Source of the DNA: a virus
Length of the DNA: 28,877 bases
Reading direction: 5' to 3' (one strand)
IMG/VR virus record: IMGVR_UViG_3300000882_000001
Shown here: positions 1 to 28,877 of the stretch, piece by piece
How positions within the stretch are numbered: position 1 is the first letter of the stretch
Layout: the number at the start of each line of letters is the position of its first letter
Translations under genes and position numbers: made by a program
Notes under the pieces: generated by a model
What the model was told of the DNA's origin: nothing
The model's input: only the letters and a program-made list of their open reading frames with translations
Databases searched by the model: none

Positions 1-23
1 GGGGCGGCATGAGCGCCAGCGAG
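1..23. repeat. Terminal overlap identical to 28855-28877 (circular closure or short direct terminal repeat)
   Basis: GGGGCGGCATGAGCGCCAGCGAG is read at both ends of the window. The ORF ending at 28866 and the ORF starting at 9 form an ATGA overlap inside it. Confidence 0.9.
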
Positions 24-236
24 TTGATCGCCCCCATCTACCGCCGCCGGGATCACCACCCGCGCGGGTCGGCGGCGTGGGTGGATCTTGACCGGGCGGT
101 GCTGCTGATCGACCGGGCGCTGTCGCGGCCTGGGCGCGGGTCGATGGTGGAGCTGGCGGAGGCGGAGCGGCTGGTGGAGCGGCGGGCGCCGGAGCTGGCG
201 GGGGATGTGCGGGCGGTGGCGGGGGGTGGGCGATGA
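9..236 (+). CDS. hypothetical small protein (75 aa)
   Basis: The ATG sits in an ATGA overlap with the preceding ORF across the join. The gene ends GGGR-stop inside the conserved junction cassette. Confidence 0.5.
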   Translation: MSASELIAPIYRRRDHHPRGSAAWVDLDRAVLLIDRALSRPGRGSMVELAEAERLVERRAPELAGDVRAVAGGGR

Positions 237-21248: not shown

Positions 21249-21682
21249 ACCGCCCCCATCGCGCCGACCGCGCCCAGCCCCAGCATCCCCATCACCACCG
21301 CATCCTGCGCCGGGGCGCTCTCTGCGTACCGATCCAGCATCGCCCGCTCCCGGCGGCTGATCCTGCCGTAGCTCAGGGTGATCGGCAGGCGCCGGAATTC
21401 ATCGACGTAGGGGGCCAGCTCCTCCGGCCACGCGCCGCGCTTGAGGGTGTTGACGATGTGAGGCGGCAGCCCGCAGCACACGATCTCCGTCAGCACCAGG
21501 CCGCGCTCCTGGCTCTCGACATAGGCGGCCAGGATCGACAGCAGCCAGGGCGCCGCCTCGCGCCAGATCGACGGCCAGCCGTGGGCGAGGGGGTGAAGGG
21601 TGAGGGCCGTTCCCTGATCCAGTTCGGGCCAGGAGCCGATCCAGTGGACTCCGTCTGGAGAAAGGAAGAGGTGGAGGGTCAC
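21245..21682 (-). CDS. hypothetical protein (145 aa) with a Gly-zipper hydrophobic C-terminal tail
   Basis: GTG start in a GTGA overlap. The C-terminus is VVMGMLGLGAVGAMGAV. Confidence 0.55.
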   Translation of the reverse strand: MTLHLFLSPDGVHWIGSWPELDQGTALTLHPLAHGWPSIWREAAPWLLSILAAYVESQERGLVLTEIVCCGLPPHIVNTLKRGAWPEELAPYVDEFRRLPITLSYGRISRRERAMLDRYAESAPAQDAVVMGMLGLGAVGAMGAV

Positions 21683-23505
21683 GCCGCACCCGTCAGCGCC
21701 TGCGACCGCAGCACCATCGCCCTGTCGAGGCGGAGCGCCGCGACGCTGTCCAGCTCGTCAGCGCTCAACACGATCCCGCATGCCAGTGTCTCGCTCTGCT
21801 GCTGCTGCAGCTTCTCCGCCTCCTGCTCCAGCCGGTACGCGCTGCCCCACAGCTCGATCCGGCGCTCCAGATCGGCGGCGATGAGGTTCGGCGTAGCCGT
21901 GGCCAGCCGAACCTCAGCGAGCCGGAGGTCGCGCTCCAGGTCGCTGTAGGAGCGCCGCTCGGAGGCGAGTTCATCCATCAGGCCGGTGACGCGGCTCTTC
22001 AGATCCTTCACCTCGCGCTCCAGCCGGTCCGCCTTCACCATCGCACCCTGCTTCTCCTCGATCAGCCGCTTGACGATCTCCGTCTGCGCCCTGACCACCA
22101 CCAGCACATCGGCCCCGTCCACGCCCTCGTCGGTCTCGATGCCCAGGGCGTCGGCGAGGTCGGCGATCAGCGTCCCGGCGGCCTCCTCGGCGGCGAGGGC
22201 TTCCTGCAGGCGGGCGTCGGTGTCGGCGGGCTTCTTTTCAGCGGGCATGGCGGCTCCTTTCGAGGAGAGCGGGTAGAGACCCGGCAGCGCCGGATCGTTG
22301 GGGAGGATCAGCCCTTTCTTGCGGAGGGCGTGGGATGCGTCGTGGATCGCCATGATGCCGACGCCGAGCGCGGGCGCCGCGCCGACAGCGGAGATCCCCG
22401 GCTGTTCGGTGATGAGCTGCAGCAGCCGACCGCGCATGGTGTCTGGCTCTACGAGCGGGCGTTCGGGCGCCGGAGGCAGCAGACCCCGCTGGCGGAGGGT
22501 GCCGACGGCGCTGCGGACGCTGGCGGGGCTGGTGTTGAAGCGCGCGGCCAGCGTGGTGCTGGTGACCCGAGGCTCGGCCAGCACGGCGGCCTGGATGCGC
22601 TCCTGGAGCTGGGGTTCACGCGGCTGGGGCTCGGCGGGGGGAGCGGGTTCGGCGCGGCGACGGGGGGCGGGCGGCAGGGCGCCGGAGCGGCGCAGGAGGC
22701 TGATGCAGCTCCGCACGGTGTCTGGACTGGTGCCGAGGCGGGCGGCCAGGGCGGCGCTGCTGATGTCCGGGTCAGCCAGCACGGCGGCGCGGATCGCCTC
22801 CTTCTGAGCGCCAGCGCGCGGGCGCGAAGATGGGGCGTACTGGCGAGCGGGCGGGGGCAGCACCCCGCGCTTGCGGAGCCGGCAGACGCAGGAGCGGACG
22901 CCGCCCGCGCTGATGCCGAGGCGGGCGGCCAGGACGACGCTGGAGAGGTTCGGCTCGTCCATCATGGCGTCCTGCACTTTGTCCTGGATCAGTGCATCGG
23001 CCTCACCACCCACGGCGGCGGTCCTGGTGGCAGGCACAGCCTTCCGCGACACCGGCTCCGCAGGTCTGGCAGTCGTCGGGCTGGGCGCGGTCTTCGCGGG
23101 CGGGGGCGGTTCGACCGGCGAGGCGTCGGGCGGCGAGGCGGTGGGAAGGCTCTTTGCGGCGGGAACCCATTCTGTCTCCGGGGTAATATTGTTAGAAAGC
23201 GGGATTGATGCGCCAGTGTCGGCATCGACAGGCGGCGCGGGGGCAGGGGTGGAGGCGGTCTCCGTGGGCCGGGCGCGCAGCACCGGGGCGGGGGACTGGA
23301 TGGTGATGGGCGGCGCGACGGGAAGGGCGGCGCGGCGGGTGTCCTCTGCGGCGAGGGCGACGGCGTCCCGGCCTGACTGCCAGCGCTGCAGACAGAGGTA
23401 GCAGACCCATCCGTAGACCGTGTGGTTCCGGCTGGGGCCGCGCTGCTCGCAGATCGGGCAGAGGCGCGGGCGGGTGTCGGTGGCTTCGAATTCAGATCGA
23501 GACAT
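21679..23505 (-). CDS. multidomain DNA-binding protein (608 aa): N-terminal Zn ribbon, Pro/Ala linker, four tandem AsnC/Lrp-type wHTH-like repeats, C-terminal coiled coil
   Basis: AGGAGGG lies 8 nt before ATG 23505. The Zn ribbon is CPIC..CYLC. The four roughly 47-aa repeats are of the form (I/L)xxAVLAxPxxSSxxLAARLGxSPxTVRSxxxxLRxxGxLPP. A heptad-like region follows. Confidence 0.75.
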   Translation of the reverse strand: MSRSEFEATDTRPRLCPICEQRGPSRNHTVYGWVCYLCLQRWQSGRDAVALAAEDTRRAALPVAPPITIQSPAPVLRARPTETASTPAPAPPVDADTGASIPLSNNITPETEWVPAAKSLPTASPPDASPVEPPPPAKTAPSPTTARPAEPVSRKAVPATRTAAVGGEADALIQDKVQDAMMDEPNLSSVVLAARLGISAGGVRSCVCRLRKRGVLPPPARQYAPSSRPRAGAQKEAIRAAVLADPDISSAALAARLGTSPDTVRSCISLLRRSGALPPAPRRRAEPAPPAEPQPREPQLQERIQAAVLAEPRVTSTTLAARFNTSPASVRSAVGTLRQRGLLPPAPERPLVEPDTMRGRLLQLITEQPGISAVGAAPALGVGIMAIHDASHALRKKGLILPNDPALPGLYPLSSKGAAMPAEKKPADTDARLQEALAAEEAAGTLIADLADALGIETDEGVDGADVLVVVRAQTEIVKRLIEEKQGAMVKADRLEREVKDLKSRVTGLMDELASERRSYSDLERDLRLAEVRLATATPNLIAADLERRIELWGSAYRLEQEAEKLQQQQSETLACGIVLSADELDSVAALRLDRAMVLRSQALTGAA

Positions 23506-23929
23506 GGGCAACGCCCTCCTGTTGCGCGTACCAGTTGAGGCGGCGCCCAATGGACAGGCCGGCGAGGGGGCTGGACACCGGCACCGGCGACAGAGACCGG
23601 AGCAGCTCGACGTAGGGCAGGCCAGCGTGTACCTCGATGCGCGTAGCTCCGGTGATCGCGAGTGCCAGGCCGAGCTGCGCCCGCACATCGGCCTGATACC
23701 GGGCCAGCTCTACCGGCGGCTGACGTAGACGCTCATGCATGCTGAGGTCGTATGGAGCTATGCGAGCCAGCGGCCAGATCAGCCCGTGGAGGGCCGACAG
23801 GATGGCCCAGGGGGCGCCCTGTGCCTCGACGTACTGGCGAGCGGCGCGGAATAGACATCCGGTGTAGAGGTCGGCAGCCGGACACGCTCCAGCAGCCTTT
23901 GTTCTTCCACATCCGACGACGATCAGCAT
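23492..23929 (-). CDS. hypothetical protein, DUF6884-like pattern (145 aa)
   Basis: The pattern is VVGCGRTK..PAADLY.G.LF..ILSALHGLI.P...I.PYDLSM. AGGAG lies upstream of ATG 23929. The family assignment is from memory. Confidence 0.55.
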   Translation of the reverse strand: MLIVVGCGRTKAAGACPAADLYTGCLFRAARQYVEAQGAPWAILSALHGLIWPLARIAPYDLSMHERLRQPPVELARYQADVRAQLGLALAITGATRIEVHAGLPYVELLRSLSPVPVSSPLAGLSIGRRLNWYAQQEGVAHVSI

Positions 23930-25849: not shown

Positions 25850-26112
25850 GCCCCACCCGACCCCACCCGACCACCACTGGTGGATGGCTGCGACGCTGGC
25901 GCGAGCGCGCGGGGCTGACGCAGGCCCAGGCCGCCGAACAGATCGGCGTGATCCAGTCCACGATCTCGTTCTGGGAGAACGAGCGCAACAGCGTCCCGCT
26001 CGACGAGCTGCGCCGGCTGGTGGCGCTGTACGGCGTCCCCGTCGAGGAGGCCGGGCTGCGGGTGATCGCGCCCGCGCAGGCTCTGACCGCTCCCGATCAG
26101 GTGGCCGCGTGA
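25834..26112 (+). CDS. Cro-like XRE-family HTH regulator (92 aa), probably leaderless
   Basis: The HTH segment is LTQAQAAEQIGVIQSTISFWENE. There is no SD, and the ATG lies 6 nt after the TAATAT box. Confidence 0.75.
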   Translation: MTCSASPTRPHPTTTGGWLRRWRERAGLTQAQAAEQIGVIQSTISFWENERNSVPLDELRRLVALYGVPVEEAGLRVIAPAQALTAPDQVAA

Positions 26113-26621
26113 ACGCCATCCCCCTGTTCCCTGAGCAAACTGAGGTTTCCCATGCCAATCGCGGCATGGACTGGGAGCAGGTCGCCGAGGAGCAGATCGG
26201 GGTGTACCGGCGCGATGGGTGGTACTGCCTGCGCCAGCACCCGCCTGTCTGCATCCAGAAGGGCTACAACGCGACGGTGATCGGCTCTGCCGCCTGCGAC
26301 TGGGTGATCAGCCGGGGCGGGCAGACGGTGGTGTGCGACCTGAAGAGCTGGTCAAGCACGCTCCGCTGGCCGCTGGAGCAGGTCAAAGACCACCAGGCCG
26401 ATCACCTCGACGCAGCCAGCCGGGCGCACCTGATCGCCGGGATCGCGCTGCTGCTCGACAGCGCCGCCTGGTGGCTGCCCTGGGGCGAGATCGGGCCGAT
26501 GTGGCACCGGTGGCGGCGCGGGGTGGCGGCGCGCGGGGAGTGCAGCCTCGGCGCGGAGCAGCTGCTGATCGTGGGCGAGCGATGCAGCGGGGTGGACTTC
26601 CTCGCGGTGGCGGTTCGATGA
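26109..26621 (+). CDS. recU: RecU-like Holliday junction resolvase (170 aa)
   Basis: GTGA overlap. Motifs: NRGMDWEQ..Y, DW..(x)..CDLKSW, PLEQVKDHQADHL. These follow the RecU pattern NRGM..E / D..DxK / HQ. Confidence 0.6.
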   Translation: MNAIPLFPEQTEVSHANRGMDWEQVAEEQIGVYRRDGWYCLRQHPPVCIQKGYNATVIGSAACDWVISRGGQTVVCDLKSWSSTLRWPLEQVKDHQADHLDAASRAHLIAGIALLLDSAAWWLPWGEIGPMWHRWRRGVAARGECSLGAEQLLIVGERCSGVDFLAVAVR

Positions 26622-26713: not shown

Positions 26714-28447
26714 ATGGCACATGAAGGGCGTCCGACGGACAGATCCGTCAGCTACGAGATCGAACACGGCATGATCGGCGCGCTGCTGATGTACGGGCGC
26801 ACCGGGCTGGCGATCGCGCAGGCGGAGGGCTGGTCTCCGGCGCTCTGTCGTCGCCCGCAGCATGAGGCGCTGGCGGAGTGGCTCGCCGAGGGCATCGAGG
26901 CGGGCGCGGTCAGCGACCTCAACACCGCCCTGGCGCACCTCGCGCTGAGCCCGCCGACGCATAGAAACGCGCCGGGACACAGCGATGCGCTGATGATGCT
27001 GTGCGTCGCGCCGCAGCATGCGCCCATCCTGGAGGCGATCCCCGCGTCGGTGCGGGCGATGGCGCAGGCCGTGGCCGTCGAGCGGCTGGCCGAGCTGCGG
27101 GTCGCCCTCGATGTCGCGGCGCGCAGCGGGGACATGGCGGAGGTGGGGCGCATCGCCGGGCGGATCGCGGCGCTGACTGCCGCTCCGAAGGCGCCCAGGA
27201 AGACGGCCCCGGAAGAGGCGGCCATCGGCGACGACGACCGGCCCGACAGCGGCACCATCGCGGCGCTGAAGAAGATCCCCAAGCGCGCCCGCGACGACCG
27301 GCGCGTCCAGGCGCGGGTGGTGATCGAGAACGACCCCCGCTGGTCTTCGCTCCGGTTCAACGAGATGAAGCAGCGGGCCGAGCGCAACGGGCGGCTCTAC
27401 ACCGACGCCGACGACGCTGGCACCACCGACTGGCTCTCCTGGGTCTACGGCATCCAGGTGGGCCGTGACGTCGCGGCAGGCGTGGTCGATCTGGTGGCGC
27501 GGAAACGCAGCTACGACCCCCTGCGCGACTACCTGACGGGGCTGGCGTGGGATGGCGTGCCGCGCCTCGACACCTGGATGCAACGCGGCCTGGGCGTCGA
27601 GGACGGCCCCCTCCAGAGCCGGATGGGCGCATGCTGGATGATCGGCGCTGCGGCGCGGGCGCTGCGGCCGGGCTGCCAGATGGACACCATGCTGGTGTTC
27701 GTCGGCAAGCAGGGCAAGGGGAAGACGCGGGCGATGGAGGCGATCGCCGGTGCCGAATTCTTCAACGAGACCGAGATCCGCATCGGGGAGATCCGGGGTC
27801 TCCAGCAGCTCGGCGATGCCTGGATCCATGAGATCGGGGAGATGACGCCGCTGCTCGCCAACCGCGTCGACCGGAACGTCTTCAAGAACTTCCTCACCGT
27901 CAAGGTGGACAGCTACCAGCGGCTGCACGCGAAGCGGAGCGGGGAGCATCCCCGCCGGTGCGTCTTCGTCGGCACCTGCAACGACAAGGAGCTGCTCAAC
28001 GACCCGACCGGCGCCCGCCGCTTCTGGCCGGTCATCTCTACCAGCGTGGACCTCGCCTGGATCCGCGCCAACCGGGATCAGCTCTGGGCCGAGGCGCGCG
28101 TCCGTCTCGACAGCGGGGAGCAGTGGCACCTGACGCCCACAGAGGAGGCCGAGCTGGAATTGCTGCAGCGCCCCTTTCGCAAGACCGACCCCTGGGAGGA
28201 GCCTCTGAGCGTGTGGCTGTCCCAGCCTGAGCGCAGCCATGAGCCGGAGACGGCGATCACCGCTGCGCGCCTTTTGGCGGACGTGATCTCCCGCCCGCTG
28301 GGAATGCAGACCCAGGCGGACAAGACCCGCCTCGGCGCGTGCATGGCGGCGGTGGGCTGGATGCACAAGGTCGCGTGGTGCAAAACCGCCAAAAAAGCGG
28401 TCAACTGCTACGTCCCCGATCCCTCGAAAGTGGAGGTTGAATCGTGA
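26714..28447 (+). CDS. replicative helicase: DnaB-N-terminal-like domain plus VirE/D5-type SF3 P-loop NTPase (577 aa)
   Basis: The N-terminus is EIEHGMIGALLMYG..PQHEALAEWL. The VirE pattern is YDPLRDYLTGLAWDGVPRLDTW, GKQGKGKT (Walker A), WIHEIGEM, FVGTCND, TGARRFWPV. Confidence 0.8.
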   Translation: MAHEGRPTDRSVSYEIEHGMIGALLMYGRTGLAIAQAEGWSPALCRRPQHEALAEWLAEGIEAGAVSDLNTALAHLALSPPTHRNAPGHSDALMMLCVAPQHAPILEAIPASVRAMAQAVAVERLAELRVALDVAARSGDMAEVGRIAGRIAALTAAPKAPRKTAPEEAAIGDDDRPDSGTIAALKKIPKRARDDRRVQARVVIENDPRWSSLRFNEMKQRAERNGRLYTDADDAGTTDWLSWVYGIQVGRDVAAGVVDLVARKRSYDPLRDYLTGLAWDGVPRLDTWMQRGLGVEDGPLQSRMGACWMIGAAARALRPGCQMDTMLVFVGKQGKGKTRAMEAIAGAEFFNETEIRIGEIRGLQQLGDAWIHEIGEMTPLLANRVDRNVFKNFLTVKVDSYQRLHAKRSGEHPRRCVFVGTCNDKELLNDPTGARRFWPVISTSVDLAWIRANRDQLWAEARVRLDSGEQWHLTPTEEAELELLQRPFRKTDPWEEPLSVWLSQPERSHEPETAITAARLLADVISRPLGMQTQADKTRLGACMAAVGWMHKVAWCKTAKKAVNCYVPDPSKVEVES

Positions 28448-28866
28448 GCCTTATACCCTCCTTATACCCTCCTTATACCCTCCTTATACCCTGCCTTATA
28501 CCCTCCTCGATCCAGGTTGGAAGCGGGTTCTTATACCCTTATACCCTGTTCTGCGGTTCCGGTTGCTGCACTGCGCCGCCCCTGCCTCTCTCTACTCTCT
28601 CTAAGGGTATAAGAGGGTATAAGGGTATAAGGTCATCGGTTGAACGCCGGTCATTTCCTTATACCCTCCTTATACCCCCCCAGGGTGAGCGGTATAAGGC
28701 GACCGAGCGGCGCGCCCCCGGCTGCATCGTCTGCGGCGGGAGCGGCCTCGACATCACCCGCCCGCTGCCCTGGGGCGGCTACGAGAGCTGCGCCCGCTGC
28801 CTGATCCCGCCGGGCTGGCCGCCGACGGTGCATCCGGCCTGGCGCCGGCACATGGGGGCGGCATGA
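28444..28866 (+). CDS. ORF spanning the iterons with a C-terminal CxxCxGxG...CxxC zinc-ribbon; coding status uncertain
   Basis: GTGA overlap with the helicase stop, and an ATGA overlap with the next gene across the join. The only canonical in-frame start is GTG 28444. The C-terminus reads GCIVCGGSG..CARC. Confidence 0.35.
   Translation: MSLIPSLYPPYTLLIPCLIPSSIQVGSGFLYPYTLFCGSGCCTAPPLPLSTLSKGIRGYKGIRSSVERRSFPYTLLIPPQGERYKATERRAPGCIVCGGSGLDITRPLPWGGYESCARCLIPPGWPPTVHPAWRRHMGAA
28449..28699. repeat. Iteron field: 13 copies of an 11-bp unit, CCTTATACCCT (9 direct, 4 inverted); probable replication origin
   Basis: Direct copies start at 28449, 28460, 28471, 28482, 28494, 28529, 28537, 28657 and 28668. 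Inverted copies lie at 28604-28614, 28614-28624, 28622-28632 and 28689-28699. Confidence 0.85.
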
Positions 28867-28877
28867 GCGCCAGCGAG
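28855..28877. repeat. Terminal overlap identical to 1-23
   Basis: Direct comparison of the two window ends. Confidence 0.9.

Follow-up and report, generated by a model that had tools for sequence, protein, structure and literature searches.

The replication origins of the Staphylococcus aureus pathogenicity islands (SaPIs) lie immediately downstream of rep. Their 6–12 iterons flank an AT-rich centre, two or more per side and in opposite orientation, and are read by a winged helix in the C-terminal domain of Rep (PMC9371898). Rep itself, a helicase, is self-loading: it binds and melts its origin without ATP and needs no loader (PMC9371898). The same organisation occurs in the phage-inducible chromosomal islands (PICIs) of Gram-negative bacteria, where a rep–ori replicon from an E. 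coli PICI was functional as judged by plasmid maintenance, and it has been stated that no other known bacterial replicon shares it (PMC6092414). Here we describe a locus of very similar design in a 28,877-nt virus sequence, IMG/VR record IMGVR_UViG_3300000882_000001 (the window, by which we mean the whole stretch of DNA that was analysed). In this sequence an array of thirteen 11-bp repeats at positions 28449–28699 directly follows the gene of a 577-aa VapE-type helicase. Based on homology, a structural model and analogy, we put the probability at roughly 85% that the repeat field is the replication origin of this phage and forms, together with the preceding gene, a SaPI1-type Rep–ori cassette. 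It would thus be a further case of the SaPI1-type design, one that appears to extend this design to true phages. The initial annotation of this DNA had proposed a replication origin made of initiator-bound iterons beside a helicase gene, and the computational evidence supports that proposal through the homology of the helicase to Rep1, the position of the origin in SaPIs and the matching offsets of the repeats.

Scanning both strands of the whole window for CCTTATACCCT with at most 2 mismatches returned 13 matches, all within 28449–28699 and all where they had been placed before, whereas 100 dinucleotide-preserving shuffles averaged 1.19 matches, with 5 as the highest count. The copies start at 28449, 28460, 28471, 28482, 28494, 28529, 28537, 28657 and 28668 on the + strand and at 28604, 28614, 28622 and 28689 on the − strand. 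Because the first and last 23 nt of the window (1–23 and 28855–28877) are identical, we take it to be a closed circular assembly of ~28.85 kb, and the motif count therefore covers the whole genome. On this circle the 8-mer cores CTTATACC, TTATACCC and TATACCCT occur on neither strand outside the field, in agreement with the earlier remark that the motif had not been noticed elsewhere in the window. From left to right the field is built as follows.

28449–28504 (+): block A, five head-to-tail iterons CCTTATACCCT in steps of 11, 11, 11 and 12 bp, the first copy 2 nt past the helicase stop codon.
28505–28528 (+): gap 1 (24 nt); its GGTTGGAAGCGGGT is similar to the gap 2 motif in a local alignment of the two gaps.
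28529–28547 (+): block B, the inner-left overlapping pair of direct iterons, 8 bp apart (motif scan).
28548–28603 (+): central spacer of 56 nt, the putative melting and helicase-loading zone, with a CT run inside.
28604–28632 (−): block C, the inner-right triple of inverted iterons in steps of 10 and 8 bp.
28633–28656 (+): gap 2 (24 nt), containing GGTTGAACGCCGGT (gap–gap alignment) and a weak hairpin at 28635–28651 (hairpin scan).
28657–28678 (+): block D, a direct pair with an 11-bp step and 1 mismatch in its second copy (motif scan).
28689–28699 (−): block E, a single degenerate inverted iteron with 2 mismatches, the right edge of the module (motif scan).

The spacings reported earlier (11, 11, 11 and 12 bp in the tandem block and 8 bp in the overlapping pairs) hold, and the full set adds the 10 + 8 bp inverted triple and the 11-bp step of the last direct pair. 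The CT-rich run described between the two 8-bp pairs is also present, as CTCTCTCTACTCTCTCT at 28586–28602. The distance from the direct pair to the inverted group, previously given as about 66 bp, has to be corrected: the gap measures 56 nt (28548–28603), and the earlier figure is closer to the 67 bp that separate the start of the last direct copy from that of the inverted group. The GC content of the field is 0.48–0.50 versus ~0.70 in its flanks, while the central spacer (58 nt analysed) has a GC content of 0.60 versus 0.69 for the genome and is 72% pyrimidine on the top strand. No Rfam RNA family was found within 28200–28877.

The gene preceding the field encodes the candidate initiator, which is composed of the following parts.

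26714–28447 (+): initiator-helicase gene, 577 aa (Pfam VapE-like_dom, E = 3.8e-62).
Residues 8–136, nt 26735–27121 (+): region resembling the DnaB N-terminal domain (profile match, E = 4e-8).
Residues 274–486 (+): VapE-type superfamily 3 (SF3) ATPase (Pfam/profile).
Residues ~517–568, nt 28262–28417 (+): predicted C-terminal winged helix, likely iteron-binding (AlphaFold2 (AF2) model).

A helicase profile built from 16 full-length homologues (alignment A1) matched PDB entry 7PDS with E = 2e-61, profile positions 191–507 falling on Rep1 residues 29–361. This entry, labelled 'Similar to D. nodosus vapE', is the SaPI1 Rep1–DNA complex (data-availability statement, PMC9371898). All members of alignment A1 share identical Walker A, Walker B and GARRFWPV motifs. 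The AF2 model of the helicase has a mean predicted local distance difference test (pLDDT) score of 82 and ends in two helices (517–524 and 534–546) and two strands (549–556 and 561–568, forming a hairpin at 549–568), with a pLDDT of ~83–87 for this predicted winged helix. In a Foldseek search the best match to the model was 7pds_A (E = 3.5e-21, 444 columns against a chain of 457 residues, template modelling score 0.66 when normalised to the target), followed by other SF3 helicases, namely NrS-1, SaPI5 PriRep5 and the primase-helicases of poxviruses and African swine fever virus. Profile and predicted fold both identify the 577-aa protein as homologous to SaPI1 Rep1, and it would accordingly be a self-loading SF3 helicase and initiator.

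The N-terminal part of the protein resembles a helicase of another superfamily. DnaB is a superfamily 4 helicase whose N-terminal domain binds primase, while SF3 helicases translocate 3′-to-5′. Pfam and PHROG searches and the gene calls revealed no primase domain in the helicase or its neighbours, and the N-terminus of the helicase matches DnaB rather than a Toprim or prim-pol domain. The domains PF00772 and PF05272 also occur together in the precomputed assignments of several helicase homologues.

To compare the geometry of the field with that of SaPI1-type origins we fetched 80 loci encoding Rep1-like proteins and read the DNA past each rep stop codon for repeats. The protein of locus L228 is 100% identical to the 7PDS fragment, and its GGGACA-type repeats lie at offsets from the stop codon of 1–33 (1, 20 and two degenerate copies), 75/83 (inverted), 161/169, ~212/220 and 254, with an AT-rich stretch of ~70 bp between the 75/83 and 161/169 pairs, each of which is spaced by 8 bp; the ~212/220 pair is less exact. 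The respective offsets for the iterons of the window are 2–47, 82/90, 159/169/177, 210/221 and 244. Because these stop-codon offsets are nearly equal, the geometry of the two loci is the same except for the orientation of the outermost block, which relative to the inner-left pair is the same in the window and opposite in SaPI1. The helicase of the window and SaPI1-type Rep1 are only ~20–22% identical; the host is probably a high-GC proteobacterium for the former and a staphylococcus for the latter. Both loci nevertheless combine a homologous VapE-type SF3 initiator with a C-terminal winged helix (predicted in the window), an origin that begins right past the rep stop codon, opposed inner repeat groups with 8-bp steps across a lower-GC spacer of ~55–75 bp, and further repeats outside of these groups. 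Additionally, gaps 1 and 2 of the window share a weak second motif (GGTTGGAAGCGGGT and GGTTGAACGCCGGT), whose alignment was equalled or beaten in 12 of 1000 shuffles; for most relatives the same test gave no significant result. A second motif likewise recurs in the corresponding gaps of SaPI1-type origins, most clearly in L291.

Of the features that define a Rep–ori replicon, the window thus has a Rep1-homologous helicase, an origin directly 3′ of its gene and opposed iterons (the pair at 28529–28547 and the triple at 28604–28632), while a primase upstream of or fused to the helicase was not found. In SaPIs and PICIs such a primase is located upstream of rep or fused to it, whereas in the window the DnaB-N-terminal-like domain takes that position. 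There are further differences. The repeat core is 8–11 bp in the window, whereas SaPI repeats are described as penta- or hexanucleotides. The centre of the field is pyrimidine-rich and, at a GC content of 0.60, only relatively AT-rich, in contrast to the AT-rich centre of SaPI origins. Unlike in SaPIs, an open reading frame (ORF) stays open across the origin. Finally, the window is a complete temperate tailed phage and not a satellite; since its closed 28.85-kb genome encodes a full virion gene set, this phage is not a PICI.

The layout is conserved beyond this pair of loci. Ten relatives, with helicase identities from 82% down to 32%, keep it while the sequence of the repeat changes, as listed below.

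L061 (82% helicase identity): repeat CCTTATACCCT.
L058 and L059 (68–69%): repeat CGTTATACCCT.
L042 (70%, partial): repeat CTCTTATAGTC.
L067 and L060 (58% and 45%): repeat TGTTCCTACC.
L063 (41%): repeat TGTTCCTA, without the outer block.
L064 (36%): repeat CCTTATATCCT.
L065 (32%): repeat TGTTCTATCC.
L066 (33%): repeat TGTTCCr.

The suggestion in the initial annotation that the same 11-mer might stand beside homologous helicase genes is therefore borne out in L061, and in the other relatives it is the layout that is kept while the repeat differs. This common layout consists of a block at the stop codon, ~25 bp, a pair spaced by 8–9 bp, a spacer of ~55–60 bp, an inverted group, ~25 bp, a pair, and more inverted copies. 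Measured from the stop codon, the relatives have their inner-left pair within about +75 to +98, their inverted groups within about +140 to +180 and their equivalent of block D within about +205 to +225. The equivalent of block A is inverted in L065, as it is in SaPI1, and absent in L063.

How widespread such arrays are is indicated by a survey of 212 loci with a VapE helicase gene, drawn from viral, metagenome and genome collections. At least 6 copies of one 7-mer within 400 nt past the stop codon were present at 79 of the 212 loci, whereas 10 of 2430 control windows, taken at these loci as well, reached that count. Overall, an array follows ~37–50% of the 212 VapE-helicase genes on phage-like contigs, and more than 100 loci with varied neighbour genes carry one after the VapE helicase gene. 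Removing near-duplicates left 54 non-redundant arrays, and in 42 of these the first repeat copy is no more than 16 nt from the stop codon. A clear switch from direct to inverted copies is present in 38 of the 54, with a median start-to-start gap of 72.5 bp (interquartile range 65–80), and the GC content of the spacer is lower than that of the locus in 36 of these 38 (mean difference −0.16, p = 6e-10). This origin architecture is thus not peculiar to PICIs but common beside VapE helicase genes on phage contigs, where it is anchored at the stop codon, which bears on the criteria by which PICIs are identified; the layout also provides a simple rule for predicting origins beside VapE genes.

The pyrimidine-rich tract in the spacer is less general. 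A family-wide test for it gave a weak signal (mean 0.55–0.57, p = 0.01–0.04), and because the effect is strong only in the clade of the window, we take the tract to be clade-specific. At the spacer centre, where the clade of the window has a (CT)n tract, distant relatives (L196, L201, L200, L193, L115, L116, L119, L183, L034 and L044) have alternating purine-pyrimidine tracts (CGCGCACGCGCGCG, ACGCGTACGTATG), often next to TATATA. These alternating tracts suggest a structure-prone melting site in the distant relatives.

Comparison with close relatives shows where the field tolerates change. The window and L061 differ at 4 of 137 iteron nucleotides versus 31 of 126 non-iteron nucleotides of the field (Fisher p = 1e-7), with three of the four iteron differences falling in the degenerate last copy, and the iterons appear to be under purifying selection. 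Among near-identical variants all 3 substitutions are in the central spacer, at 28579, 28591 and 28592. One variant, L004, encodes an identical helicase and has four copies in the tandem block (2483–2530) versus five in the window (28449–28504); either a genuine allele or a collapse in the assembly may explain the difference.

If the helicase is the initiator, the question arises which of its parts, or which other protein, reads the repeats. The initial annotation had named two candidates, the C-terminal end of the helicase and a 608-aa protein with repeated winged helix-turn-helix (wHTH) domains. The latter and a second protein encoded upstream of the helicase are described here.

21679–23505 (−): 608-aa protein with several HTH_24/MarR-like winged helices (Pfam-type domain matches).
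26109–26621 (+): 170-aa protein, Holliday junction resolvase-like (PHROG 843, E = 1.4e-10).

The relative L067 is a natural recombinant in which the middle and C-terminal parts of the helicase and the iterons have been swapped as one cassette. Its helicase is ~100% identical to that of the window over residues 1–120 and then diverges (left part of the mosaic, 26714 to ~27300), so that the last 57 residues, the C-terminal domain, are only 12–17% identical, and its iterons (TGTTCCTACC) are unrelated to those of the window. The 170-aa upstream protein of L067 is 100% identical to that of the window, and its DNA is 97.6% identical from window position 28711 on, with the breakpoint at 28710/28711 marking the right edge of the iteron field. 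Specificity for the repeat is therefore not set by the N-terminal domain, by the 170-aa protein or by the downstream genes, all of which L067 keeps nearly unchanged despite its other iterons.

Within the C-terminal domain, the wing motif appears to follow the repeat class across clades of the helicase core. P0018, whose core groups with those of P0024 and P0030, combines a TTATAyCC repeat with a wing like that of the window (W.HK..W..T.K..VN.[YF]), while P0030 has a G[FY].RR.[IV]R wing, as in P0014–P0016, and a GTTCC repeat. Across 49 non-redundant loci, iteron similarity correlated with the identity of the C-terminal domain when the core was controlled for (partial Mantel r = 0.19, p = 0.0005), and the reverse correlation, with the core when the C-terminal domain was controlled for, was weaker (r = 0.09, p = 0.036). 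Homologues of the 608-aa multi-wHTH protein were found, among viral contigs, in this same phage only, and its gene is not beside most of the surveyed arrays. Together, the swap in L067, the tracking of the repeat by the C-terminal domain and the presence of the array after the helicase gene at more than 100 loci favour the predicted winged helix of the helicase C-terminus over the 608-aa protein as the iteron binder, a preference based on sequence, model and analogy. The natural swaps, and more than 50 distinct pairs of iteron and C-terminal domain, offer material for studies of winged-helix specificity and for the design of orthogonal replicons.

The repeats could also be bound by another phage protein, for instance the 608-aa multi-wHTH protein, and serve as an operator array or late-gene switch. 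The field is indeed located where the early replication genes meet the late block, the several HTH_24/MarR-like repeats of the 608-aa protein could read tandem sites, and the hairpin at 28635–28651 is weakly terminator-like. However, that hairpin was the sole find of a scan that detected no sigma-70-like promoter in the field, the array follows the helicase gene in many relatives with differing neighbour genes, and SaPI1-type loci have the same geometry with the cognate Rep C-terminal domain as the reported binder, all of which makes a switch of this kind very unlikely.

A second alternative starts from the ORF that crosses the field.

28444–28866 (+): 140-codon ORF (from the ORF list), its GTG start overlapping the helicase stop codon (GTGA), with a CxxC...CxxC zinc-ribbon-like tail (~28718–28866).

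In all eight relatives with a zinc-ribbon-like tail, L067 included, the frame of this ORF is stop-free across the field, while the other two frames contain 2–6 stops. In L004 the ORF has no start codon and its frame runs on from the helicase frame past the TGA. Gene callers disagree on the ORF, and its product has no Pfam or PHROG match. At least one stop-free frame is present in 28 of the 54 non-redundant arrays, a figure for which the chance expectation is unclear in repetitive sequence. If the repeats served chiefly to encode a genuine 140-aa product whose translation is coupled to that of the helicase, its repetitive N-terminus would explain why the sequence is conserved, and this reading would account for a start codon that overlaps the helicase stop (GTGA or ATGA), for the open frame in the tail-bearing relatives and for a TGC-to-TGT change in the tail that is synonymous. 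Yet a purely coding explanation fails, because the 11-bp unit is out of codon phase, so that the 'protein repeat' differs from copy to copy, because the four inverted copies are not explained by coding alone, and because L004 lost one unit and the start codon with it. The same geometry is moreover found without such a tail in L042, L060, L064 and SaPI1, and the product lacks family matches, leaving this explanation with little probability. Coding and origin function can coexist, as the lambda ori lies inside gene O, and because the frame is stop-free in all eight tail-bearing relatives, the origin of the window may similarly overlap a translated ORF.

This arrangement raises the possibility, tentative and in our estimate rather unlikely, that the origin is coupled to its initiator both physically and translationally, either through cis-preferring capture of the iterons by the protein as it leaves the ribosome or through ribosome transit, or the zinc-ribbon product, gating the firing of the origin. 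The idea arises because in 42 of 54 arrays the repeats begin right at the stop codon, because the DNA-binding domain is made last and because the ORF stays open even where the iterons have been replaced. If true, it would be a coupling of translation and replication that is undescribed for SaPI-type replicons. The tight linkage may instead reflect selection that keeps a co-evolving protein–DNA pair together in recombination.

The R1 centromere parC has two sets of 11-bp repeats, and P1 pac has symmetric repeat sets around a central region. Although the two groups of 11-bp tandem repeats in the window resemble the former, its symmetric sets the latter, and a terminase gene lies ~2 kb downstream across the circular junction, it is extremely unlikely that the field is a parC-like partition centromere or a packaging (pac) site for the small terminase, given that gene calls and domain searches turned up nothing like ParM, ParA, ParR or ParB in this genome or in related ones, and that the phage has an integrase. 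It is moreover the helicase, and not the set of packaging genes, with which the repeat type changes: the downstream DNA of L067 is 92–98% identical over most of its short contig while its iterons are unrelated, and L060 and L067 share iterons while their downstream genes differ.

Reading the field as a SaPI1-type replication origin, we propose the following mechanism. The 577-aa protein would act as a self-loading SF3 (VapE/Rep1-type) hexameric helicase and initiator whose C-terminal winged helix would recognise the 11-bp repeat. The inner groups at 28529–28547 and 28604–28632 face each other and would each nucleate one hexamer, the 56-nt spacer between them, with its lower GC content and pyrimidine-rich top strand, would be melted, and the two helicases would depart in opposite directions, each moving 3′-to-5′. 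The outer blocks (A, D and E) are probably accessory sites that raise occupancy or regulate firing, and the 11-bp phasing would set the five copies of block A along one side of the double helix. Block A, whose copy number varies and which L063 lacks, may be dispensable. As no primase gene was detected in the phage genome, we further propose that the DnaB-N-terminal-like domain may recruit the host primase DnaG. This gives an uncultured phage an origin annotation together with a testable initiator–DNA pair.

Several points weigh against this reading. Binding, melting and origin firing in this phage are all drawn from homology and anatomy. The C-terminal domain of the helicase is not alignable to Rep1 by sequence, and only its predicted fold aligns. 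With a GC content of 0.60 the spacer can hardly be called AT-rich, and G and C predominate in its left half, so the start site of melting is uncertain. The partial Mantel correlation is modest and most iteron classes coincide with clades of the whole protein, and the 608-aa multi-wHTH protein remains a candidate that may act as a second binder. Finally, with an ORF open across the field, part of the constraint on its sequence could come from coding.

Beyond SaPIs and PICIs, three other systems invite comparison. P4 alpha combines an SF3-type helicase and a primase domain with a C-terminal DNA-binding domain that reads short direct and inverted iterons, and P4 has two separate sites, ori and crr, several kb apart. 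The comparison with these sites in the initial annotation is fair as a functional analogy, but the closer and homologous relative is the SaPI/PICI Rep–ori module. All iterons of the window lie in one 250-bp field with none elsewhere in the genome, and there is no primase domain; lacking a second iteron site genome-wide and such a domain, the locus is not a P4-type ori/crr system. No P4 alpha structure was among the profile matches listed or the best 50 Foldseek matches. The theme TGTyCC.ACC is common to the iterons of many unrelated lineages among the 54 loci (TGTTCCTACC, TGTCCAACC, TGGCCCTACC, CTTTCCAACC, TGTTCCCAGT), and many VapE-family iterons of this form resemble the type I iteron of P4, TGTTCACC.

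As in the window, the lambda origin has initiator-binding iterons next to a lower-GC region, in an early replication module downstream of a cI/cro-type switch, and it overlaps an ORF (gene O), as the origin of the window may too. In contrast, lambda O is not a helicase, requires P and host DnaB, and binds four 19-bp inverted-repeat sites inside its own gene; Pfam and PHROG searches identified no lambda O or P homologues among the window proteins. For the crenarchaeal plasmid pRN1, an essential cis element of 166 bp is described just downstream of the gene of the orf904 primase-helicase (PMC4234260). Both pRN1 and the window have an SF3-type replication protein with a cis element downstream of its gene, putative in the window, and pRN1 differs in that its protein belongs to another family, with a prim-pol domain, and its host is an archaeon.

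Searches for the field itself in other phages returned little. BLASTN of the helicase–ori segment against GenBank phages gave weak matches of ~68% identity in the ATPase core only, leaving the field unmatched, and a scan of viral contigs for two tandem iterons returned the same phage only.

The genome is that of a complete small temperate tailed phage, with genes for a large terminase, a portal with a MuF-like domain, a major head protein, a head-tail adaptor, tail proteins and an integrase. Its early-right genes are arranged in the order cI-like repressor (−), cro-like helix-turn-helix protein, 170-aa protein, 577-aa helicase, iterons, small ORFs and terminase. The field lies only seemingly at an 'end', as the genome is circular, and the gene starting at 28864 continues at window positions 9–236 across the circular junction. 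The 170-aa gene is absent from L060, which retains the origin layout. The same phage is present in several freshwater-type metagenome contigs, and because a helicase 70–80% identical to that of the window is found in an Alphaproteobacteria metagenome-assembled genome, its host is probably an alphaproteobacterium. On the opposite arm, the gene of the 608-aa multi-wHTH protein adjoins that of a DUF6884 protein in an early-left operon (21679–23929, −).

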